Sequence record: OP557970.1
Origin: Escherichia phage ph0021
Direction: 5' to 3' (one strand)
Length of the DNA stretch: 64,000 nucleotides
Positions 4,502 through 63,521 of the stretch are shown in pieces. The notes under the pieces were generated by a model that worked only from the letters and a program-made list of their open reading frames with translations, was not told where the DNA came from and ran no database searches. The number at the start of each line of letters is the position of its first letter. Within the stretch, counting starts at the first letter, position 1. The position numbers were made by a program, and so were the translations under genes.

Positions 4502-4532
4502 TACTATAACACAACACGAGGGACTTGTAAAC
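4502..4532 (-). promoter_or_regulatory. T4-type early promoter
   Basis: Minus-strand GTTTAC -35 (4527..4532) and TATAGT-like -10; part of a repeat shared with the alc promoter. Confidence 0.6.
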
Positions 4533-6589
4533 TACATTTTGAACTTTTTAGACATTCCGTTGATGTTAACCAAAGAAGTCAAGATTTGAGAAACTTCATT
4601 TTCCTCTTCTTTTGATTCTTCTACAAGGAATTGATTAAATCCAGCCATTGGACGAACTTCACCAGTTTCCATTAGATGGTCTCCATCATATACTGATTCT
4701 TCTAATTGTTCAGAAGGAGGAACGATTGTACCTTCGATTAGATACTTGTTATAAGCAGTTTCTTTCATAAAGTACGTACTTACTTTATTAATCTTCAGTA
4801 AAATTCCACGTGGTAGAATAACTTCAGCTTCTGACGGAAATCCTGATAAATGACCTGGAACGATAACTTTGATTCGCTCAGCTCCTTTAATTACCATACC
4901 CACGCTAGTTTCTGCATCTTCATTAGCATATGTAGAATGACTACCCATATGCATCAAATCTTCTGCATCAACGGAACCTTCTCCTTCACCAGAAAATACT
5001 GCGCCGGAATCATCTAGAGCCATATAGTTTTTACCATGCTCACCGAAGATATTTGGTTTAAGCGATGTGGATACGAAGTTCTTGAAATAGAACATTTTAT
5101 TTTCAATGTTATGACGCAAAGTTTTAAAGGTAACTTCTTGCCCACGGTAAAGTGTAGTTCCTGGAGGAAGAACTGATCCTTTGGCAAAGGCAGAATCTAA
5201 CGTCTCGATGTGCTTAATAGCTCGTTCCATGTATTCTTCACGGGTAGAATCTGGTTTACCCAAAAGGAACGAGTTCATTTCAACATATGAATCTGCACAA
5301 TAATCTTCAATTACATCAGATTCAGCCTGAGTCAGTCCTTTTGGAGCTACTTCGGTGCTTGCGTATTCATATGCCTGGGCAGCAGATTCATTAATCAATT
5401 TATAAATGCCATTCATGACAAATTGAATAATAGCTGTCTTTTCATCTGGTGTGGTTTTAGAACCTTTAACTAAATCATTAATAATTTTCTTAATAACATC
5501 AAAGCTATTAGAAATATTAATGTCAGCAAGATCGCTTAAAATTTTATCAGTTTTATAATCAAAGAATTCTTTATTCTTTAAATATTCTTGAGAACCTTGA
5601 TATGTTATATCGCTCTGCAACTTGATAGATGGATCACGTAAACGTGCATGGGCTAATGCAATATGATTTCGGAAACTTTCTAGTTCATAATCGTTAGATT
5701 TAAAACGAAAAGCACTTCTCATACCACCGATAGCTCCTTTGCTGAAGTTTGAACCAATCTGAATAACGCCAGAGTTCATTGGTCCTTCTGCTTTATATAC
5801 CGGAACTTTAGATTCAAATTCTTGATATTTCTTAGCAGCGAAGCTATCACCCTGAAGTGAAGCATCAACAGTAGAATATTGAGCTTGTGCTGCTAATCGA
5901 CGACTAATTTTAGTTTTCTGAATAACAGCTTGATCCGTGCGCTTATCATTTTCTAAAGCAATAGAAGCAGCAACAGCAACAGCTTTAGGAACAGCATTAC
6001 CTGTTTTAACGTCTACATAAACATCACCAACCTTTGATTCAACTTTTGTGAATAACTCGGTTGAAATAGGAGGTACACCTGGAATGTCTTCTAAATTGGC
6101 ATTTTTACGGTAAACCATAATATATGCGTACTTTTTATCATAATCCCAGATTTCCTTTAAAAGAACATATCGACCTGCTCCTTTAGTACGTACTAAACGG
6201 TCAGCAATAACTTGCATTTGACGAGCTGCGCCATTTGTTTTACTTTTTAGTACGCGGAATAGGCATGCATCAATTTTATACTGCTTCATTGTTTGAAGAG
6301 CAGTATCAAAAACAGCATTAATGACGCCAATTGGATTTCCACCCAAGTTTTTAAGCTTAACTAATGATAGTTTCTCATTAACACCTATCATTACGATATG
6401 CATCATTTTGTCGCCTGGCTTAACGTTTTTATTCGTATCACCGCCAGAGGTGTATGTACAAAATCTAAATCCAGGAAGCACGCTTTCTTCACCTGCTTGA
6501 ATAGCAAAAATTTGAGGTATTTTATGCTTAGGATTTAAGTTAACAACCGGCGCCGAAGCGCCGTCAAATAATTCTGTAATAAGTTCCAT
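4532..6589 (-). CDS. Alt-like ADP-ribosyltransferase, paralog 2
   Basis: 685 aa; N-terminal ~230 aa and C-terminus (YDGDHLMETGE) closely match the adjacent Alt; ART motifs LYRG, FVSTSL, EAEVILPRG; central region diverged. Confidence 0.8.
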   Translation of the reverse strand: MELITELFDGASAPVVNLNPKHKIPQIFAIQAGEESVLPGFRFCTYTSGGDTNKNVKPGDKMMHIVMIGVNEKLSLVKLKNLGGNPIGVINAVFDTALQTMKQYKIDACLFRVLKSKTNGAARQMQVIADRLVRTKGAGRYVLLKEIWDYDKKYAYIMVYRKNANLEDIPGVPPISTELFTKVESKVGDVYVDVKTGNAVPKAVAVAASIALENDKRTDQAVIQKTKISRRLAAQAQYSTVDASLQGDSFAAKKYQEFESKVPVYKAEGPMNSGVIQIGSNFSKGAIGGMRSAFRFKSNDYELESFRNHIALAHARLRDPSIKLQSDITYQGSQEYLKNKEFFDYKTDKILSDLADINISNSFDVIKKIINDLVKGSKTTPDEKTAIIQFVMNGIYKLINESAAQAYEYASTEVAPKGLTQAESDVIEDYCADSYVEMNSFLLGKPDSTREEYMERAIKHIETLDSAFAKGSVLPPGTTLYRGQEVTFKTLRHNIENKMFYFKNFVSTSLKPNIFGEHGKNYMALDDSGAVFSGEGEGSVDAEDLMHMGSHSTYANEDAETSVGMVIKGAERIKVIVPGHLSGFPSEAEVILPRGILLKINKVSTYFMKETAYNKYLIEGTIVPPSEQLEESVYDGDHLMETGEVRPMAGFNQFLVEESKEEENEVSQILTSLVNINGMSKKFKM

Positions 6590-6592
6590 GAT

Positions 6593-8686
6593 TTATCCTT
6601 GAACGAACTTGTAAGGCATGTTTGTAATATCTATGCAAGACGCAATAATTCCAAGAGATGATTCTACTTTCTGTTTAATATTTGATGAAACAAATGATGC
6701 AAAGTCAACTCTGTCTTCTATTTCAATATCACCTGTCATTGCAACCAATTCACCAGTTTCCATTAAATGGTCTCCATCATAGATTACCGATTCGGTGAGC
6801 TCTTCCGTGGTCATAACTTCAGCTTGAATGAGTTTTGTATTATTAGATGTTGTTCCGTCATTATTAGAAGCATCGGTTATTTTATTAACTTTGACCATCA
6901 ATCCACGCGGTAGAATAACTTCAGCTTCTGTTGCTATTCCGAGACTTCCTGGATATACAACATTAACTTTATGAGCTCCATCAATTGCCCATCCTATTTG
7001 AACTTTAACATATTCAGGATTTTCTTTATACGCTCTTATTTCGTTTGGATTAATAGTTATTCCTTCTTCATTTTTATCAACTGTTAATTCATTGCGAGCT
7101 TCTGGTTCTAAAAGACCAATACCAGCATGTGTGATTCCAAAACGTCCAAAAATGATAGGAGTTAAAGAAGTAGATACAAAATTTCTGAAGTAGAACACTT
7201 TATTTTTAACTAACGCTTCATATATAGGAGCAGTCATACTTTGAGCACGATAAACTGTAATGCCTTCTGGTATACGGTCACCATTTTCAAAAGCTGAATC
7301 TAAGTTATTTATAGCAGATTCAATTTCTTTTTCACTCATTACATCGTATCGTTCTGGATTGTAACGACCTAAAAGAAGATTATTGATGTCAGTATATCCT
7401 GAACCGCAATATTCTCTAATGCCACGCTTTTGTGATGGAGTATATTTAGAACCATCGCGGGCAATAGTAATATCAATCATTGGACCAGCACCAATTCCAG
7501 AAAAACTGTAAATCATTCGTTTGAGGAATTTAGTTTTTGCTGCGTTCCAGGAATTTTTAGTTATTTCTTCCCAGACTTCATCTGGTTGTCCTTTACGATT
7601 TTTATTATGATTAGCAAGCCATTTATCTTTATAATCTTCAAAGAATTGATTTACAGCTGCTGCGTATTTCTCTAAACATTTTATTGAAGTAGTTGGTTCA
7701 TTTTTAATTGCATTAAAAATTACTTCTTTAATTTTTTCTGAAACTTCACCGACTTGACTCATTGGAAAGAATTTATAATCATAGTGAAGTTCATCTGCCG
7801 TTCCTTCAGCAATAATTTTTGCTGCCTTTGTTTTAGAAGCTAATGAATTAATTCCAATTTTCATTTCTTCTGCTTCGGGAATTAAAGGTGCAGTAGCTGG
7901 TTTATTAAAATTGGCTGCTGTAGATTCATACTTCTGGAATAATTCACTTTCAAATCTAGAAGATTCCAATGACTGACTTTGTGCAATTGCTCTACGGGAA
8001 ATTTTAACTTTAACGATTACAGCTTGGTCAGAACGTTTATCATTTTCTTGTGCAATAGATGCTGCAATTGCTTCATTTTTAGTTACTTGAGCTCCAGTAT
8101 CTTTATTGATATAAACATCACCGACCTTCGATTCAACTTTAGTAAAGAGTTCAGTGCTAATTTCTGGAACTCCTGGAATGTCTTCTAATGATACATTTTT
8201 GCGATGTATAAGAATATATGCATACTTTTTATCGTAATCCCAGAGTTCCTTAAGAAGGACGTATCTGCCACCTGAACGACTACGGATAAGTCTATCAGCA
8301 ATAACTTGAATTTGTCGAGCTTGGCCAGCAGTTTTAGACTTAAGAATACGAAGCATGCAGGCATCAATTTTATATTGACGCATCGTTTGCATTGCAACAG
8401 TAAAAACTGAATTGATATAATTAATTGGGCTTGGACCAAGACCTTTTAATTTAGCAATTGAGCCTTTAGCAGTTAATGTAAAAGGAACAATATGCATCAT
8501 TTTATCGCCCATCTTTAAATCGCGATTAGTATCACCTCCAGATGTATAGGTACATAAACGAAAGCCTGGTTGTTCAATTGCATCATCAACATGAACTGAA
8601 AAAATTTGTGGTATTTTCTTCTTTGGATTTAAGTTTGTAATCGGAAGAGTAGTATCTTCGTCAAATAATTCTGTAATAAGTTCCAT
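6593..8686 (-). CDS. alt: Alt ADP-ribosyltransferase (head-packaged, modifies host RNA polymerase)
   Basis: 697 aa starting MELITELFDEDTTLPITNL; ART R-S-E motifs; located between 54 and 30 as T4 alt. Confidence 0.85.
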   Translation of the reverse strand: MELITELFDEDTTLPITNLNPKKKIPQIFSVHVDDAIEQPGFRLCTYTSGGDTNRDLKMGDKMMHIVPFTLTAKGSIAKLKGLGPSPINYINSVFTVAMQTMRQYKIDACMLRILKSKTAGQARQIQVIADRLIRSRSGGRYVLLKELWDYDKKYAYILIHRKNVSLEDIPGVPEISTELFTKVESKVGDVYINKDTGAQVTKNEAIAASIAQENDKRSDQAVIVKVKISRRAIAQSQSLESSRFESELFQKYESTAANFNKPATAPLIPEAEEMKIGINSLASKTKAAKIIAEGTADELHYDYKFFPMSQVGEVSEKIKEVIFNAIKNEPTTSIKCLEKYAAAVNQFFEDYKDKWLANHNKNRKGQPDEVWEEITKNSWNAAKTKFLKRMIYSFSGIGAGPMIDITIARDGSKYTPSQKRGIREYCGSGYTDINNLLLGRYNPERYDVMSEKEIESAINNLDSAFENGDRIPEGITVYRAQSMTAPIYEALVKNKVFYFRNFVSTSLTPIIFGRFGITHAGIGLLEPEARNELTVDKNEEGITINPNEIRAYKENPEYVKVQIGWAIDGAHKVNVVYPGSLGIATEAEVILPRGLMVKVNKITDASNNDGTTSNNTKLIQAEVMTTEELTESVIYDGDHLMETGELVAMTGDIEIEDRVDFASFVSSNIKQKVESSLGIIASCIDITNMPYKFVQG

Positions 8687-8742: not shown

Positions 8743-8928
8743 TTAATAGAGAGCTAAAAGAGTACGATATACTTCAAACTTTGGACCTTTTTCATATGGA
8801 TCAAATCTTTCCGTGAATTCATCATATGCTAGTTTATCTGGGAATTCAAGAATAACCTGCGATACCGCAGTGGAAACATCTCCACCTTCTTTTTGAGCCA
8901 CGACAATTGTTTCTAAGTAAGCTTTCAT
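8743..8928 (-). CDS. hypothetical protein
   Basis: 61 aa ORF, start overlaps ligase stop. Confidence 0.4.
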   Translation of the reverse strand: MKAYLETIVVAQKEGGDVSTAVSQVILEFPDKLAYDEFTERFDPYEKGPKFEVYRTLLALY

Positions 8929-10388
8929 AAACCAGTTACCTCATGAAAATCGCCAAATACATCTTCGAACGTATTAGCTTTAGTTTTATCTTCACGTAAA
9001 CGAATTGCAATTGGAAGAAATAGCTTAACGTAATCAGTACGTCCATCTAATTTTACCCAGCCGTTGCATTCGCACTCTAGAATTTTTCCAATATAATAAT
9101 TTTGGTTTTCCATAATGCGAGTACGATCAAGTTCATGCGATTTTATACCGGCTTTATCTTTTAAGCCTGAACCAGCATTTACTTTAATTTTTCCACACTC
9201 TGATTCAAGAATGAAACCACCTGCTTTAGTAGGGTCTTTACGGTGAGGATAAATTCCTACAATTTTTAAATCAACATCAATTACTTCTTTAAATTTATAA
9301 AGATTTTTTGAACGAGCATTTTCCCATAATCCATCGATATTTTTAAGAATAATACCTTCAAGACCTTGGTCAATATACTTTTTATAAATTACCTTAGCTT
9401 CATCTAGGTTATTTACTACTTGGTTTTCAATTAAAATTACTTTATCATAGCCTGATGTCATTTGTTCTAGTTTAGAAAAACGTACATCATATTTTAAACG
9501 AAATGCTGGAAGACCATATATTTCTACTAATGGAACATAGTCCCAGACCTGAAACTTCATGCATTGTGCTTCTTTTTCAGAAATGGTTCCCTTTAAAGAT
9601 TTATTAGCGATTCCATTAGAAGTAGTACGTGATTCAGCTACTTCGGCGAATTCTTTAGCTTTACTAATTTCAGGATAAGCATCAAAAAGAAAATCTAGGC
9701 CTTCTGGTTCCTTTTTAACTTGCTCATGGTATACCAATTCGCCATCAATTAACACACCTTCTGGATGAATCTGGCGAGCTTCTGCAGTCATTTTGATTAA
9801 CTCTTCCTTGAGAAGATCTAATCCTAGATATTCATTACCAGCTCGTGATAAAAGACGAACATCATCTAATTCATCACCTCTGACTTCAGCAAAACAGCGA
9901 GCTCCATCAGCTTTTAGCTGTGCAAAGGCTGGAAATTTGATATTCTTATTAATGCCTTTTTCGTCATAAGAACTTGCTAGCATTTGAGGTTGTTCAGGAA
10001 TTAAACCTGGCCAAACTTTGTTTGCAATAGATACTGATGCACCGCATTCAAGGTCTCGCATCATCACCCGACGCAAAACTTCAACATCATCTTTTTTACC
10101 GTCAGTAATATATCCAGTTAATTCCTCAATTGCCGCATTTCCAGTCAATTTCCGAGTAGCTAACGTGAATTCAATGAAGTCAAGCATATCGGTAAGAGTC
10201 AACATTCCAAAACTCTGGGTAGTAATACCCGGTTTAGGCCATTTCTTGATATAATACTGTAACCCACGAGAATAAGTCAGACGATATACTCGTTTAAGCA
10301 ATTCATTATCTTTATTCTTTTCAAGAATTGCTTGCTTCTGCTTAGTTGAACCAATAGATGCTATTTCGTTCAGAATTTTAAGAATCAT
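8925..10388 (-). CDS. 30: ATP-dependent DNA ligase gp30
   Basis: 487 aa, N-terminus MILKILNEIASIGSTKQKQAILEKNKDNELLKRVYRLTY matches T4 DNA ligase. Confidence 0.95.
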   Translation of the reverse strand: MILKILNEIASIGSTKQKQAILEKNKDNELLKRVYRLTYSRGLQYYIKKWPKPGITTQSFGMLTLTDMLDFIEFTLATRKLTGNAAIEELTGYITDGKKDDVEVLRRVMMRDLECGASVSIANKVWPGLIPEQPQMLASSYDEKGINKNIKFPAFAQLKADGARCFAEVRGDELDDVRLLSRAGNEYLGLDLLKEELIKMTAEARQIHPEGVLIDGELVYHEQVKKEPEGLDFLFDAYPEISKAKEFAEVAESRTTSNGIANKSLKGTISEKEAQCMKFQVWDYVPLVEIYGLPAFRLKYDVRFSKLEQMTSGYDKVILIENQVVNNLDEAKVIYKKYIDQGLEGIILKNIDGLWENARSKNLYKFKEVIDVDLKIVGIYPHRKDPTKAGGFILESECGKIKVNAGSGLKDKAGIKSHELDRTRIMENQNYYIGKILECECNGWVKLDGRTDYVKLFLPIAIRLREDKTKANTFEDVFGDFHEVTGL

Positions 10389-10654
10389 TGTTCATCCTTT
10401 AGAGTTTGGTTTACAGCTCTATTATAAATCAATTCATCATTAAGCTCAGTCAAAGACCTGTGATACGTGGTTCTAACTTTATTTCCTTGCATCCAGTGCT
10501 TGACATAAATGAAACCTTGCTCTACACATTTTTTAAAAATTCGTTCGTCTTTTTGAGCTCGGAATTCTGGATTGCATCTAAAAAATTGATTTACGTGACC
10601 GTAATCACGTGTAGTATTACCTTCATTTTCATAAATAGTGTGAACGACAAACAT
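10385..10654 (-). CDS. hypothetical protein (30.1 position)
   Basis: 89 aa ORF, coupled overlaps with neighbours. Confidence 0.4.
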   Translation of the reverse strand: MFVVHTIYENEGNTTRDYGHVNQFFRCNPEFRAQKDERIFKKCVEQGFIYVKHWMQGNKVRTTYHRSLTELNDELIYNRAVNQTLKDEQ

Positions 10655-11490
10655 TAGAATGCTCCTTGGAAAATATTATCACCACTAGTAGGTCTATTAT
10701 ACAAATACTCTATGCCACCGGGTTTAATATAGTTCCATGTCTGAAACGGATGCGTCTGATATGGATGATATAGATTATAAGGATTAAATCCAGGAGTTCT
10801 CCAGGTAGTGTTCCAAGGAAAAGAATCGTTTTTAATCATCTTTTCAATTACATCTTTTATAGCTTTTTCACTATCAAAACTTTCTTTATTTTCATTCGAT
10901 GGAAAAAGCTTATTCTCTACATCATTCCATGTATAAACTCGCTGTGCAGTTTTTGGAATATTGTCACGCTCTCCTCGAGCCATCCAATAAACAGGAACAT
11001 TTAATATTTCACTCGCATGATCGCAGTGGTGAGCGAGATCGTCAATATAACAAATTACGTTATATTTCTCTTTTGCCTTTTTGAACAACTCTTCTTTTGA
11101 AGAATCATGACCACACATCAATACTTCTGAGAAGGCACCAGGAAAAAGAGCATTCAAATTAAATTGACGATTCAGCAGAGCGTCAATAGAATCACCCAGT
11201 GCTGTAACAGCTACAAAATTATAATCTTCTTTTAATTTGTTAATTACACACAGGGCATCTTTATATGGAGACAAATAGCGAATAAAATCTGAACGATTAT
11301 ACTTTTCGATTAATTTAACACCAAGTTCTTCATCGCAATTAAAGAGCTTACCAGGAGAAATAAATTTTTCGTCCTGAATCATTTTTAAAATATGTTCCAA
11401 CGGAAGATTATATTTTTGGGCAAAATAAGGAAGGCCTGATTGCCAGCTTAAACATACACCATCAATATCAGTCAAAATAGTAGGCTTCAT
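10654..11490 (-). CDS. HAD-superfamily hydrolase, possible nucleotidase (30.2 position)
   Basis: 278 aa; motif I LTDIDGV near N-terminus and later YIDD motif typical of HAD phosphatases. Confidence 0.55.
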   Translation of the reverse strand: MKPTILTDIDGVCLSWQSGLPYFAQKYNLPLEHILKMIQDEKFISPGKLFNCDEELGVKLIEKYNRSDFIRYLSPYKDALCVINKLKEDYNFVAVTALGDSIDALLNRQFNLNALFPGAFSEVLMCGHDSSKEELFKKAKEKYNVICYIDDLAHHCDHASEILNVPVYWMARGERDNIPKTAQRVYTWNDVENKLFPSNENKESFDSEKAIKDVIEKMIKNDSFPWNTTWRTPGFNPYNLYHPYQTHPFQTWNYIKPGGIEYLYNRPTSGDNIFQGAF

Positions 11491-11951
11491 AGAGAGTCTC
11501 TTAATAGGTTTAACACATCAATAAATTCAACTTCGGTTAGTATTGTATCATCTTTTGTTAGACCACTAGCCATGCTATGCTTCAAAATTTTTCCTTTTGA
11601 GGCTTGTAAGGCATCACGAAACCCCTTGTTTTGGATCGCTGCTTCAAAATATGCATTTGTATACAATTCTTTCCACGCTGGGGAGTATCTTGAAAATGGA
11701 ACTCCGAGCCAGAAGAGGGTCCCACGGTCCGCAGCTCTTGCATAAGACCTTCCAGCTTGTTGGGCGGCAAGCCCGGATAACCCAAATATACGTCTTTGCT
11801 GCTCAACATTTTTCACCTTGCATCCTTGGAGGAATCCTTCAAGACCTCCGAATTGAATACCATCCATGACGAAAGGCCATTGGGCGAAATTACTTAATGC
11901 GCATGATGGCCATCTAAAATTGCTTCTAATCTCTAACTCAGACATTTTCAA
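11487..11951 (-). CDS. NADAR-domain protein (YbiA-like; 30.3 position)
   Basis: 154 aa; motif ALSNFAQWPFVMDGIQFGGLEGFLQGCKV parallels E. coli YbiA FSNFAAWPIKVDGKTWPTSEHYFQAQKF. Confidence 0.6.
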   Translation of the reverse strand: MKMSELEIRSNFRWPSCALSNFAQWPFVMDGIQFGGLEGFLQGCKVKNVEQQRRIFGLSGLAAQQAGRSYARAADRGTLFWLGVPFSRYSPAWKELYTNAYFEAAIQNKGFRDALQASKGKILKHSMASGLTKDDTILTEVEFIDVLNLLRDSL

Positions 11952-12144
11952 TACTTATAATTTCAACATCAGCCCAATGACCATAGCAAGGAAGACGAAA
12001 TTCAACTGGCCAGTTAGGGTCCTTTTCTAATATAATAGACTTAACTTGTGGTTCTTCATGTTCATCAGTATATGGATTTTTATCTGTTACTTTATATGTG
12101 ACCTTAATGTATTGAATTCCAAAAATCTTATTAATTATATTCAT
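11938..12144 (-). CDS. hypothetical protein
   Basis: 68 aa ORF in 30.x cluster. Confidence 0.35.
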   Translation of the reverse strand: MNIINKIFGIQYIKVTYKVTDKNPYTDEHEEPQVKSIILEKDPNWPVEFRLPCYGHWADVEIISIENV

Positions 12145-12338
12145 ACTAATTCCTTTAATCCGTAAATAGGAGACAATTCATCACCCATACGAAGGTCTTC
12201 ATTTCCATCTACCCAGGAAACAATATAAGCCTCTTTTATTTGAACACCACTCCATTTAAATGGAGGTAGAACCTTAGAAATTAATCCAGGTATACCAACT
12301 CCCTTTAATTCAACAGTTTGACCTAAAAAGAATTTCAT
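12141..12338 (-). CDS. hypothetical protein
   Basis: 65 aa ORF in 30.x cluster. Confidence 0.35.
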   Translation of the reverse strand: MKFFLGQTVELKGVGIPGLISKVLPPFKWSGVQIKEAYIVSWVDGNEDLRMGDELSPIYGLKELV

Positions 12339-12625
12339 TAGAACCTCATCTGAAAACCATGCGATTTAACATTACCGCCGCCAATATCAGAAATATTAAT
12401 TTCACGCGCAATCGAAGGATCGATGTCAATTTCACGATTAAGTTTAGCGATAGCTAAAGTATCACGCCCATTTACAGTACGGAACTCTAAAGGACAAACC
12501 ACATCAACGTAATTTTTAATCGATTCACTGGTAGGTTGCAAATGAGCAGGAAGGTCTTTGGGCGCCTTTGAGAAAACCACTTCACAGAAATTTTTACGGG
12601 TATCAAAATAAGTAGTCATAAACAT
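12338..12625 (-). CDS. hypothetical protein
   Basis: 95 aa ORF preceded by a UUCG hairpin and RBS. Confidence 0.4.
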   Translation of the reverse strand: MFMTTYFDTRKNFCEVVFSKAPKDLPAHLQPTSESIKNYVDVVCPLEFRTVNGRDTLAIAKLNREIDIDPSIAREINISDIGGGNVKSHGFQMRF

Positions 12626-12666
12626 AGTATTTTCCTCAGTAAGGGGCCGAAGCCCCTCATTTTATT

Positions 12667-13044
12667 TTAAATATCAAATTCATTAAGAACTACATCAAAG
12701 ATTGCTTCAAGATGCTCAGGTTTAGCTCTGTTACTCAGAATATGACGAATCCAAGTTTTAACCAAAAGCTTGCGATTATCACCATTCCAGCAAGGATGAG
12801 TCCCTAAATCGCGTTGACGAAAATCATCATCCAGAGCGATTTTAAAGTTGGAACCTTCCATTGTGATTGAAACCGTGATGCCATTTTCAAATCGCATATA
12901 AACGTAATTAGGAGTCATATACTGTTCAATTTCGCATACTGATCCATTTTGATGTTTCCAAAGGCAAATAGTATCAATAGAACCTGCAATACCATTAGAA
13001 ACATATTTACGTTCAAAGTTGATGTAGTTCATTTTATTCTCCAA
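12667..13044 (-). CDS. hypothetical protein
   Basis: 125 aa ORF with its own early promoter. Confidence 0.4.
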   Translation of the reverse strand: MENKMNYINFERKYVSNGIAGSIDTICLWKHQNGSVCEIEQYMTPNYVYMRFENGITVSITMEGSNFKIALDDDFRQRDLGTHPCWNGDNRKLLVKTWIRHILSNRAKPEHLEAIFDVVLNEFDI

Positions 13045-13063
13045 GATGTTTAATTGCGGTACA

Positions 13064-13097
13064 GGTATATAATATCATATCCTGTACCAAAGTAAAC
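13064..13097 (-). promoter_or_regulatory. T4-type early promoter
   Basis: GTTTAC -35 (13092..13097), 17 nt spacer, TATTAT -10 on minus strand. Confidence 0.55.
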
Positions 13098-13099
13098 AA

Positions 13100-13432
13100 T
13101 TATTTTACTACTTTCCAGTGTTGCATGTCAAGTTTACCGACTTTTTTCATCTTCTCAATTAAGCGTTCGGCGCGTTGGCGAGCTGTAACATAATGCCATT
13201 CGCCTAATTCATTTTGTTCAATTTTTCCAACGATTACTGTATTCAATTCATAAATCCAACCAGTAAAGAAATTATGAACTTGAATTGTAAAGGTGAAATC
13301 TGTTCCCATACCTTCTGTTGTTTCTACTTCAATAATATCACCTTCAACTGCCATTAAGAACCACATAGTTTCGTTATATTCACCATTGAAGCATTTAGCT
13401 TTAACTGCAGCGTTCAGATTAATCGTTTTCAT
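13100..13432 (-). CDS. hypothetical protein
   Basis: 110 aa ORF with its own early promoter. Confidence 0.4.
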   Translation of the reverse strand: MKTINLNAAVKAKCFNGEYNETMWFLMAVEGDIIEVETTEGMGTDFTFTIQVHNFFTGWIYELNTVIVGKIEQNELGEWHYVTARQRAERLIEKMKKVGKLDMQHWKVVK

Positions 13433-13457
13433 TTTATTCTCCTTTGTTTGTGTAAGA

Positions 13458-13489
13458 TAATACTATCACAAAGGAACCATACTGTAAAC
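13458..13489 (-). promoter_or_regulatory. T4-type early promoter
   Basis: GTTTACA -35 (13484..13489) and TAGTAT -10 on minus strand. Confidence 0.55.
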
Positions 13490-13509
13490 AACTTTATGCA
13501 ATCTTTGGA

Positions 13510-13537
13510 AAATAAAAAAGGACTCCCGAAGGAGTCC
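13510..13537 (-). terminator. rho-independent terminator
   Basis: Hairpin ggactcccgaaggagtcc (UUCG loop on transcript) followed by U-run. Confidence 0.65.
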
Positions 13538-13542
13538 TCAAC

Positions 13543-13719
13543 TTATGCTTTCTGCTTACCAAAACGAGAAGCATCATCTCGAAGAACCGCACGTGCTCGG
13601 CGCATGATCTTCTCAACAGTTTGATTGATACGAGAGTTCGACCCACGCTTGTAGCCAGCGCGTTTAGAATCACCAACTTTCTTTTCAACTGCTTTCTTTG
13701 CTTTAGCTTGTTTTGCCAT
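13543..13719 (-). CDS. small highly basic protein (about 58 aa from MAKQAKAKK)
   Basis: Lys/Arg-rich ORF; the internal start with upstream RBS is preferred over the longer 72 aa reading. Confidence 0.4.
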   Translation of the reverse strand: MAKQAKAKKAVEKKVGDSKRAGYKRGSNSRINQTVEKIMRRARAVLRDDASRFGKQKA

Positions 13720-13964
13720 TATAAATTCTCTTTTAAATGAAAATGCAGGACTTATTGGCATTGCCTGCGCAAGCCCTCAAGGGGAACATAGGTTTTTGGG
13801 TATTTAACGACCAGGATAACCATAAACCCGTCATCATTCACATTCAAGAGGTACACCATAAAACTGCCGGGGTCTTAAAACTATAATGATTCGCAAATCA
13901 TTAATCAGACAGTTCGATGGCTCCTCGATTTTAGCTCACACTAAGGCAGTGAATCTCCAATAAA

Positions 13965-14213
13965 TTACTTCAATGTTACCACAAAGTGACGAACTGCTTT
14001 TCGTGCAGCAGAAGCCAGAGGCTTAGCATACTTAAGTTCATCTTTTTCCTGAAGCTCAGCAGCTAATGCAGTTTGAGCAGGATTTAGATGTTTGAAATAA
14101 CGCAGGATTTCAAGAGCTTCGGCTTCAACATCAATAGATGCGCCATAGTTTTCGTGACCATTATTCCATGCGTTTCGTTGCAGTTCAAGAGCGTGTTGTA
14201 ATTGTTTAATCAT
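13965..14213 (-). CDS. rIII: rIII lysis-inhibition accessory protein
   Basis: 82 aa, same length and position (beside gene 31) as T4 rIII. Confidence 0.8.
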   Translation of the reverse strand: MIKQLQHALELQRNAWNNGHENYGASIDVEAEALEILRYFKHLNPAQTALAAELQEKDELKYAKPLASAARKAVRHFVVTLK

Positions 14214-14360
14214 TTAAAAATTCTCGTTAGAGATTAAAACTCGGTAGTCACGTTCTTCTGAATTTCATCTTCTTTCGACAGATCTCTCAGTTGTAGACTA
14301 CCACATAGAATTGTTCGGTTAACTTATTATTCCGACACCCAATTCATATTATTATTTATA

Positions 14361-14696
14361 TCACTTATAAAGACATGGAATAGCTTTATAGTGGCAAGTG
14401 ACGAATTTTTGTTTAATTTCTTTTGGCTGCTTAAGACCCAGAGCTACAAAAGGATGCGGAACATTTCGAATTTGACCAACTGGAAGAGAAGTCAAATCAC
14501 CAACTTCGCAGAAACCTTCAGGAACATCAGGACCAACAGAGTGAACTACACACAGTTCAGGAACTTCACCTTGAACACGTTTACCGATAATAAGTCCTGA
14601 TTCTGTAACTTCTTCATCACCAGCTTGTGCAGGTTCAGAAACTAAAATAACATATTCACCGACAGCACGAATTGGTAGCTGTTGTACTTCAGACAT
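14361..14696 (-). CDS. 31: gp31 co-chaperonin (GroES analogue for capsid folding)
   Basis: 111 aa starting [19 protein letters not shown], matching T4 gp31. Confidence 0.9.
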
Positions 14697-14724
14697 CGTT
14701 TTTCCTTTTTGTTAACAGATGAAT

Positions 14725-14755
14725 TAATAATAACAAATAATTCTTAAAGCATTTA
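14725..14755 (-). promoter_or_regulatory. candidate MotA-dependent middle promoter for gene 31
   Basis: Minus-strand TGCTTTA (MotA-box-like) about 12 nt upstream of a TATTAT -10. Confidence 0.4.
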
Positions 14756-15061
14756 TTTACCAATAAATTGAAGCAAATGCTCAACTTTCATACCATTAAC
14801 AGAAATCAATTTGCCAATAGAAAAACCTCGCCATGCGCCAAGTTCAACATCAAATACTGGAATCATGTCAGTAGATTCTTTCCGAGTAGATTCAGTCAAT
14901 TTACCAGTTTGCATGGTTGGCATAAAGTCTGCATCACGAGTACCTTTCATAGTACGAATAGTACCATCAGACTTTTCAAAAACTACGTTTGAAACACCCA
15001 TGGACAATTTGGTTTTCAAAATTTCGCGAATTGCTACTTTCTGCTCAGTTGTCAGTTTCAT
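14753..15061 (-). CDS. hypothetical protein (31.1 position)
   Basis: 102 aa ORF. Confidence 0.4.
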   Translation of the reverse strand: MKLTTEQKVAIREILKTKLSMGVSNVVFEKSDGTIRTMKGTRDADFMPTMQTGKLTESTRKESTDMIPVFDVELGAWRGFSIGKLISVNGMKVEHLLQFIGK

Positions 15062-15298
15062 TTATTTACCTATTACAGTTTTAATATGAGTTGTTCCACG
15101 TTCTTTAAGGGTGGAAAGTAATTTTTGGCATTTTTCTAAATCAGATTTCCAACTATATGGTCTATCAATACTAGTCCAATCAGTTTTATAATACTGTTTC
15201 CATTTAGAGAAAAAATATTTCTTATACTCTACAGCAAACGAGATGTTCTCGTTAGAATAAGAACTAATTGCTGTAAGCTTTACCAAACGAAATTTCAT
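15062..15298 (-). CDS. hypothetical protein (31.2 position)
   Basis: 78 aa ORF. Confidence 0.4.
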   Translation of the reverse strand: MKFRLVKLTAISSYSNENISFAVEYKKYFFSKWKQYYKTDWTSIDRPYSWKSDLEKCQKLLSTLKERGTTHIKTVIGK

Positions 15299-62298: not shown

Positions 62299-62901
62299 TT
62301 ATAGATTAAATCCTTCAAAGTCAAGAGTATAGATAGTGTATGTTGAATACTTTTTATACTCATATCTATCTGCAATTCTAAATACACTTCCAGCCGGTAT
62401 CATTACTTCTTGTTCATCTGAAACTAATTCCATATTACGATAACGATGACTATCCGGAAACTTAAAGTTTGGATTGTATTCTTTACAGCGTAGAGCTTTT
62501 ATAGCATACTCCTGGAAATTGAATACCATAGGAGCTTTGAATTCAAAAATAACCTGTGTGTTATACTCTAAACCGGAAGCAAAATGTAGAGCTATATTTT
62601 TATCATATGAAGCTGATACGACTTTATCAAATGTAATAATATCAATTCCTTGATTTAATACTTGCTTAGTCTCAGCTGGAACACCTCTCCAAAGAGGTTT
62701 ATCGTTTGGAACCAAACGAGATTTGATTATTTCATTTAACCAAGTATGGTCATCTGGCTTATTAGTAATACAATGAATTAAAAGTTCAATTTCAGATAAA
62801 TTAAACCCTTCAGAAAGTAATTCTTCACGAATAGAAGCACGCACCGATGCATCCATTGATTTTATTTTAAAATCTTTTAGTTGCATTACTGAGTATTTCA
62901 T
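62299..62901 (-). CDS. modA: ModA ADP-ribosyltransferase
   Basis: 200 aa; ART R-S-E motifs (LWRGV, SASYD, EQEVMIP). Confidence 0.8.
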   Translation of the reverse strand: MKYSVMQLKDFKIKSMDASVRASIREELLSEGFNLSEIELLIHCITNKPDDHTWLNEIIKSRLVPNDKPLWRGVPAETKQVLNQGIDIITFDKVVSASYDKNIALHFASGLEYNTQVIFEFKAPMVFNFQEYAIKALRCKEYNPNFKFPDSHRYRNMELVSDEQEVMIPAGSVFRIADRYEYKKYSTYTIYTLDFEGFNL

Positions 62902-63521
62902 TCAACTACCTCAATATCATAAACTTTAAATATTCCAAACGAATCGTGTAATTTTTCTTTTGAAATAGAAGTTATTTTATACTTTCCAATTGGAATCATC
63001 CATTCTTGTTCACGCACAATCATCATTAAGTTATCAGTACGCTCTGAATCTAATCCATCAGTATCTTCATACGTGTACTTAAACTCAGTATTAGGAGAAG
63101 AAAGTATAATATCGCTGATATGGTCAGAATAATTAAAAGCTTTATCAGTTTTTAAGCGAAATATTATTTCAGTGAAATACTCAACATAAGAAAAACCGCA
63201 TGCTGTGTGCAAACTAGTAGTAAATGAATCTACCCTGTTCGTTGAAAACACTTCTCCAACTTGTAAATCTTTAATAAGTTCTTCTGTTGATTTTGATATA
63301 CCACGATATAACTGATATGGTGATTTAGTTAAATGCTTTTTAATGATTTTATTCAACTGCTGATGAAGAGATTCATTCTTTTTGGCTTCCATACATTGCC
63401 AAAGAATTGACTGTTCAAAGTCAGTAAATTTTTCACAGACCTTTTTATACATATCATATTGAAAATCAACGCTTTCAGCTTTTATAGATAACTGTTCAAC
63501 ATCTGCAAGATTAATAATCAT
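62898..63521 (-). CDS. modB: ModB ADP-ribosyltransferase
   Basis: 207 aa; ART motifs (LYRGI, FSTNRV, EQEWMIP); tandem with modA. Confidence 0.8.
   Translation of the reverse strand: MIINLADVEQLSIKAESVDFQYDMYKKVCEKFTDFEQSILWQCMEAKKNESLHQQLNKIIKKHLTKSPYQLYRGISKSTEELIKDLQVGEVFSTNRVDSFTTSLHTACGFSYVEYFTEIIFRLKTDKAFNYSDHISDIILSSPNTEFKYTYEDTDGLDSERTDNLMMIVREQEWMIPIGKYKITSISKEKLHDSFGIFKVYDIEVVE

Follow-up and report, generated by a model that had tools for sequence, protein, structure and literature searches.

The DarTG1 resistance of phages T2 and T4 has been mapped to gene 30.3, since renamed adfN after its product AdfN (anti-DarT factor NADAR; Johannesman et al., Nat Commun 2025, PMC11825919). 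Once adfN is deleted, neither T4 nor T2 plates on DarTG1 hosts, and in RB69 a frameshift that removes the last 15 residues of the protein makes the phage DarTG1-sensitive, a defect that is rescued by adfN supplied in trans (PMC11825919). Purified AdfN strips ADP-ribose from DarT1-modified DNA, which an E36A variant does not, being inactive in vitro, and a K43A exchange weakens rescue; the protein does not bind DarT1 and has no effect on DarTG2 (PMC11825919). AdfN is the first orphan antitoxin homologue of a lytic phage shown to reverse DNA ADP-ribosylation. In a HIDEN-SEQ transposon screen of T4, gene 30.3 was dispensable on K-12 (insertions at 27/28 sites), while its insertions were severely depleted on DarTG1 (log2FC -7.25, adjusted p 0) and neutral on DarTG2 (0.03) (10.1101/2025.11.20.689424). 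A phage NADAR has also been reported to hydrolyse guanine-ADPr and not thymine-ADPr in vitro (Toxins 2024, PMC11125620). The T4 construct of that study is described as residues 1-208, at odds with a protein of 152 amino acids, and for this reason we weight its result less; the in vitro evidence of PMC11825919 is cleaner.

T4 AdfN cannot replace the antitoxin DarG1 in uninfected cells: it does not rescue uninfected Escherichia coli from DarT1, and outside the T-even group it gives only weak help to T5 and Bas25. The picture of a simple stand-alone DNA-repair enzyme is therefore incomplete, and from both observations a T-even factor is suspected behind AdfN activity.

DarG1 itself, represented by the E. 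coli C7 NADAR and the Geobacter lovleyi NADAR (PDB 8bat), is encoded beside the DarT1 toxin gene. AdfN-Bas32 and AdfN-Bas60 (T5-like phages and Vequintavirinae) are, like gp30.3, guanine-specific orphan NADARs of phages that counter DarTG1, but they fall in NADAR clades other than that of the T4 type and represent independent acquisitions; no infection is needed for them to neutralise DarT1, whereas T4-type AdfN is fully active only during T-even infection. AdfM (T4 tk.4), directed against DarTG2, follows the same strategy as an antitoxin-like hydrolase proposed to reverse DNA ADP-ribosylation, but it is a macrodomain with a fold unrelated to that of AdfN, and its target is the thymine-ADPr made by DarT2. 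YbiA of E. coli is a housekeeping enzyme of the riboflavin pathway. Its sequence (PDB 2b3w) and that of another NADAR of the YbiA family, from Phytophthora (PDB 8bau), are ~19-21% identical to gp30.3.

Identity and context of the locus

The window analysed here, the whole stretch of 64 000 nucleotides of Escherichia phage ph0021 (OP557970.1), is Tequatrovirus DNA. The 2.4 kb around adfN are 100% identical to phages PsgM02F, AugustSocin (BASEL Bas38) and KMB40, and the last 25 kb of the window are 100% identical to PsgM02F. An earlier note, drawn from the sequence alone, had singled out the reading frame at 11487..11951 on the minus strand as a NADAR-domain protein of the gene 30 accessory cluster and a candidate factor for anti-defence or self-protection. 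The frame exists as claimed, with 154 amino acids when counted from a TTG in the ORF listing, and it is not a chance one, matching Pfam PF08010 (Phage_30_3) at E 2.5e-68 (228.6 bits against a cut-off of 36, with model positions 1-138 of 138 covered). It is T4 gene 30.3, or adfN, of a T4-like phage, and as such already known and characterised.

The window protein shares 148/152 residues (97%) with T4 gp30.3, colinearly and with no gaps, and 152/152 with gp30.3 of Bas38. All four differences from T4 (Q72A, V120I, I125M and A138V, from T4 to window) are conservative, and none of positions 72, 120, 125 and 138 is a conserved column in the alignment of 59 full-length relatives of gp30.3 that we gathered from 5.8 billion proteins. 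At the DNA level the adfN allele is identical to those of Bas38/AugustSocin, KMB40 and PsgM02F, and not to that of T4. The protein resembles its T4 counterpart further in its length, its flanking genes 30.2 and 30.4, the residues E36, K43 and H123, and its C-terminal helix. From the full length of the product, the retained helix and only four differences from T4, all at non-conserved positions, we infer that the window allele is probably active, as T4's is, and we predict that the phage is DarTG1-resistant. All the Tevenvirinae Bas35-Bas47 are DarTG1-resistant, Bas38 with its window-identical protein among them, a link that is one of correlation only.

The ORF listing begins each frame at the first ATG, GTG or TTG, and the 154 amino acids of the earlier note include two codons upstream of the annotated start. 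The T4 orthologue is annotated with 459 nt and 152 amino acids, equivalent to the ATG at 11945 here, and the annotation of Bas38 places the start of gene 30.3 at the same ATG. Because the published residue numbers E36 and K43 fit only this codon (PMC11825919), the start of adfN is the annotated ATG at 11945 and not the TTG at 11951, and the two extra codons are probably not translated.

The gene order is as in T4 (30, 30.1, 30.2, 30.3, 30.4 onward, all on the minus strand). The order of the window's reading frames and the T4 and Bas38 annotations agree in placing adfN in the T-even gene-30 accessory cluster, flanked by 30.2 and 30.4, so that the cluster context proposed for it holds. The overlaps of adfN with both neighbours (Table 1) recur in the Gaprivervirus, Dhakavirus and Mosigvirus loci, and direct reading of the sequence finds no Shine-Dalgarno-like sequence before the adfN ATG. 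Unlike the DarG1 gene, which lies beside that of DarT1, adfN in the window is an orphan: neither 30.2 nor 30.4 gave a Pfam family match or a DarT-type match. Plus-strand reading frames across the locus (57, 90 and 54 amino acids) had no support and were treated as chance.

Table 1. Coordinates of adfN, its functional sites, its neighbours and the ADP-ribosyltransferase genes in the window.
Feature	Coordinates	Strand	Remarks
Alt paralogue	4532..6589	-	685 aa
Alt paralogue	6593..8686	-	697 aa
Gene 30.2	10654..11490	-	278 aa; ATG overlaps adfN stop by 4 nt; no Pfam family
adfN (gene 30.3) CDS	11487..11945	-	152 aa plus stop; orphan DNA ADP-ribosylglycohydrolase assigned to the NADAR superfamily
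C-terminal helix, codons of last 15 residues (138-152)	11490..11534	-	Intact here; absent from the inactive RB69 allele
His123 codon (CAT)	11577..11579	-	Directly after last beta-strand; replaces the catalytic Glu (YbiA family) or Asp (DarT-linked)
ORF 30.3'	11582..11809	-	75 codons inside adfN, +1 frame; Pfam DUF2883
Catalytic Lys43 codon (AAG)	11817..11819	-	Read from sequence; aligns to YbiA K55
Catalytic Glu36 codon (GAA)	11838..11840	-	Read from sequence; aligns to YbiA E48
Ser18-Asn19-Phe20 codons	11886..11894	-	N-terminal SNF motif common to YbiA; aligned to YbiA S30-N31-F32
Gene 30.4	11938..12144	-	68 aa; end overlaps adfN start by 8 nt; PHROG 2042, no Pfam family
Two extra codons (TTG AAA)	11946..11951	-	Mechanical ORF extension in the earlier coordinates
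Putative sigma-70-type promoter upstream of 30.7	13102..13131	-	Near-consensus (TTGACA, 18 nt, TAAAAT); consensus match only
Putative terminator after 30.9	13518..13539	-	Strong hairpin plus T-run; consensus match only
ModA	62299..62901		99% identical to T4
ModB	62898..63521		95% identical to T4

NADAR fold and active site

A direct profile search, the check put forward in the earlier note, does not bring out the NADAR assignment. The window protein alone has no match to Pfam PF08719 (NADAR, formerly DUF1768) at E<=1 and none in NCBIfam, and a single-sequence search of the PDB with it found no NADAR; Pfam holds the phage gp30.3 proteins in the separate model Phage_30_3. The assignment stands through relatives, profiles and a structural model. 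PF08719 is matched by 20 of the 59 gp30.3 relatives (best E 1.5e-7), the gp30.3 family profile places YbiA at the top of the PDB sequences (E 0.0098), and hhalign aligns the family with E. coli YbiA over 91 columns at 93.8% probability (E 1.8e-7). An AlphaFold2 model built on the family alignment (pLDDT 93, pTM 0.89) matches NADAR structures only and displays the NADAR alpha+beta fold. Together, the profiles, the intermediate sequences and the predicted structure support membership of gp30.3 in the NADAR superfamily.

The phage motif to which the earlier note had pointed, ALSNFAQWPFVMDGIQFGGLEGFLQGCKV, is present in the adfN translation, and the string compared with it, FSNFAAWPIKVDGKTWPTSEHYFQAQKF, is true E. 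coli YbiA sequence (PDB 2b3w). In characterised NADARs a glutamate and a lysine (E43/K50 in the Phytophthora NADAR, E88/K95 in the E. coli C7 NADAR) bind the distal ribose and phosphate and are required for activity, and the counterpart of K43 is K95 in the E. coli C7 NADAR and K50 in PnNADAR (PMC11543638). YbiA E48 and K55, to which Glu36 and Lys43 of gp30.3 align, are aligned in turn with the catalytic residues of PnNADAR. Conservation is high at these positions: E36 is invariant in the 59 relatives and a Glu in 145 of the top 149 cluster representatives, whereas K43, at least 90% conserved in the relatives, is a Lys in 144 representatives and an Arg in 3. The SNF motif is likewise invariant in the relatives (S in 142/149 and N in 144/149 cluster representatives), and hhalign also pairs Q40 with YbiA Q52.

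The third catalytic position is a Glu in the YbiA family, an Asp in the DarT-linked family and a His in phage gp30.3 (PMC11543638; PMC11125620). The hhalign alignment stops at K122, paired with YbiA V124, which puts H123 opposite E125, the Glu on the last strand that is characteristic of the YbiA family; in the DarG1/BC4488 family the catalytic Asp (D171 in E. coli C7) takes this place. H123 is invariant in the 59 relatives and a His in 142 of the top 149 cluster representatives. The catalytic residues of YbiA are thus shared as regards the Glu and the Lys, but not the third residue, and in this position gp30.3 differs from both described families.

Further features set gp30.3 apart from its homologues. 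It lacks the N-terminal extension of the DarG1 type, its domain starting at residue 1 of 152 amino acids as against 219 amino acids for 8bat, and the missing extension of T4 AdfN has also been remarked on previously (PMC11825919). Compared with YbiA, residues 76-85 form an additional beta-hairpin, and the D-x-x-W-G segment of YbiA is replaced in the gp30.3 family by a conserved T134-x-L136-T137-x-x-E140 motif. The AlphaFold model has a helix at residues 138-151, within the segment that is missing from the RB69 protein.

Function of AdfN and alternative explanations

The anti-defence role suggested by the earlier note has been confirmed experimentally for the T4 orthologue (PMC11825919; 10.1101/2025.11.20.689424); it is correct but already known, and not new. 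We consider it highly probable that the product of adfN is a free-standing NADAR glycohydrolase that reverses the DarT1 guanine ADP-ribosylation of phage DNA. Our own analysis shows which gene this is, that the allele is full length and intact, and which fold and catalytic residues its product has, while activity and phenotype come from the work of others on the T4 protein. AdfN would be made early in infection. On a DarTG1 host, the DarT1 toxin puts ADP-ribose on guanine of the phage DNA and blocks replication, and AdfN would cut the guanine-ADP-ribose N-glycosidic bond by means of Glu36, Lys43 and His123 of its NADAR active site, whereupon the DNA would be restored and the phage could replicate. 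It would act like the host antitoxin DarG1, but as a phage-borne orphan, and would neither bind the toxin nor act on the thymine-linked ADP-ribose made by DarTG2.

The other suggestion in the earlier note, self-protection, started from the ADP-ribosyltransferases of the phage, and all four of those named (Alt twice, ModA and ModB) were located in the window. Both tandem, full-length Alt paralogues match the ADP-ribosyltransferase Pfam model and are called Alt and Alt2 in Bas38, whereas T4 has a single alt and the short remnants alt.-1 and alt.-2. AdfN would then clean off-target ADP-ribosylation by the phage's own Alt, Alt2, ModA and ModB, and a comparative survey found the NADAR genes of T4-like phages to be expressed early together with the transferases (PMC9503650). 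Yet NADARs act on guanine-ADPr, whereas the T4 annotation gives proteins (RNA polymerase, S1 and EF-Tu) as the targets of Alt and ModA/ModB. Gene 30.3 of T4 is dispensable on plain K-12 (27/28 sites) despite the transferases, and disruption of alt, modA or modB by insertion leaves fitness on DarTG1 unchanged (log2FC -0.01, 0.11 and 0.13, respectively; 10.1101/2025.11.20.689424). Self-protection against Alt, ModA and ModB found no support in these data, and we give it hardly any credence. A role in scavenging soluble immune signals or toxins derived from ADP-ribose (cyclic ADPR variants etc.), proposed for phage NADARs from comparative genomics before any tests (PMC9503650), would suit the distant family members that neighbour Nudix and PRPP-synthetase genes on jumbo-phage-like contigs, as well as the 39 of the top 149 family representatives that exceed 260 amino acids, maybe as fusions or tandem copies. 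We judge it very unlikely, given that the demonstrated substrate and phenotype are DNA guanine-ADPr and DarTG1, which would leave scavenging at best as a second activity, and that the data do not link gp30.3 to TIR/Thoeris-type signals.

The kinship with YbiA raises a further reading, in which gp30.3 would be a housekeeping N-glycosidase that removes reactive intermediates of the riboflavin pathway. The Glu125 that defines the YbiA family is a His in gp30.3, the published phylogeny sets the gp30.3 cluster nearest to the DarT-linked NADARs and not to YbiA, and the phenotype is DarTG1-specific; the probability of such a role is close to nil. For annotation, the window product, a "hypothetical protein" in Bas38, KMB40 and PsgM02F, becomes AdfN, from an intact and presumably active allele, and a guess made at the level of a motif in raw sequence can evidently recover a real counter-defence gene.

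Neighbouring genes and transcription signals

Insertions in T4 gene 30.4, immediately upstream of adfN, lose fitness on DarTG1 (log2FC -1.79, p 1e-4, adjusted p 0.014) and not on DarTG2 (-0.03); on DarTG1, insertions in the more distant upstream genes 30.6 and 30.7 have no effect (10.1101/2025.11.20.689424). Among the HIDEN-SEQ Data S6 rows from gene 26 onward, the part of the table to which this statement applies, 30.4 is the only significant DarTG1 gene besides 30.3. The neutrality of the 30.6 and 30.7 insertions disfavours simple transcriptional polarity as the cause. Since 30.4 overlaps the adfN start and the adfN ATG lacks a preceding Shine-Dalgarno-like sequence, the simplest reading is that the effect probably reflects translational coupling to adfN. 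That gp30.4 is, beyond such coupling, a T-even-specific factor required by T4-type AdfN for full activity seems to us unlikely. Phage records with a recognisable gp30.4 number 720, and most of these phages have E. coli or its close enteric relatives as hosts, a host range that resembles that of adfN from a DNA-level search, the two sets of records being compared by host range only.

On the other side of adfN, gp30.2 is a predicted HAD-superfamily hydrolase with a disordered C-terminal tail, as judged from its conserved residues and modelled structure. The residues D8, D10, K132, D150 and D151 of its DxD, K and DD motifs do not vary, and the AlphaFold model (pLDDT 82) exceeds 90 to about residue 200 and falls below 50 over the last ~55 residues. 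Its Foldseek matches (E about 1e-8) were HAD hydrolases as well as 5'(3')-deoxyribonucleotidases, the latter being its closest compact structural matches. We considered gp30.2, whose gene lies downstream of adfN and is translationally coupled to it, as the missing cofactor of AdfN and rejected it, since transposon insertions in 30.2 of T4 do not alter fitness on DarTG1 (log2FC -0.12; 10.1101/2025.11.20.689424). The gene downstream of one distant gp30.3 homologue is unrelated to 30.2. As far as current data show, 30.2 is a neighbour of adfN and not its functional partner.

A second reading frame, 30.3', lies inside adfN (Table 1), and the T4 annotation lists it as a product of internal translation. 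As a stretch of 76 codons the frame is open in T4, Dhakavirus, an unclassified phage and Gaprivervirus (where the start ATG is lost). Overall it is open in five of six diverged genes, with a stop breaking the Mosigvirus copy, and the rest of the frame is full of stops.

The putative promoter upstream of 30.7 and the putative terminator after 30.9 would together frame an early transcription unit from 30.7 to 30 that includes adfN. Our promoter scan of positions 8800-15200 yielded 23 sites against 23.0 expected from shuffled sequence, with no excess, and an Rfam scan of 9000-15000 found nothing.

Distribution and natural alleles of adfN

An exhaustive HMM search recovered 1683 clusters of the gp30.3 family at 50% identity, 474 of them at E<=1e-30, and the family is present in 1510 phage records from many host genera. 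Of the 39 representatives above 260 amino acids, several have the domain in duplicate or triplicate or carry long additional regions, and the profile of PHROG 652 spans 296 positions. Among the distant family members, the contigs examined resemble large phages; the possibility that these relatives are bacterial or DarT-linked was rejected, as the contigs were phage-like with no DarT nearby.

Many natural adfN alleles are damaged, as seen in the aligned relatives P0007, P0014-P0017, P0020, P0045 and P0065, with sequencing errors a possible cause. In some, such as P0014 and P0016 (phage NR1), a frameshift enters or leaves the 30.3' frame; in others, for instance P0045 of phage RPN226, a deletion has joined the C-terminal part of gp30.3 to the beginning of 30.4, 30.7, 30.8 or 30.9. 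Complete phage genomes are the source of some damaged alleles, and RB69 may not be the sole T-even phage with a dead adfN.

One of the records closest to the window, OR584013.1 (PsgM02F), is labelled as a Pseudomonas coronafaciens phage, although it is 100% identical to the coliphage-type window over at least 25 kb, and its Pseudomonas host label looks doubtful.
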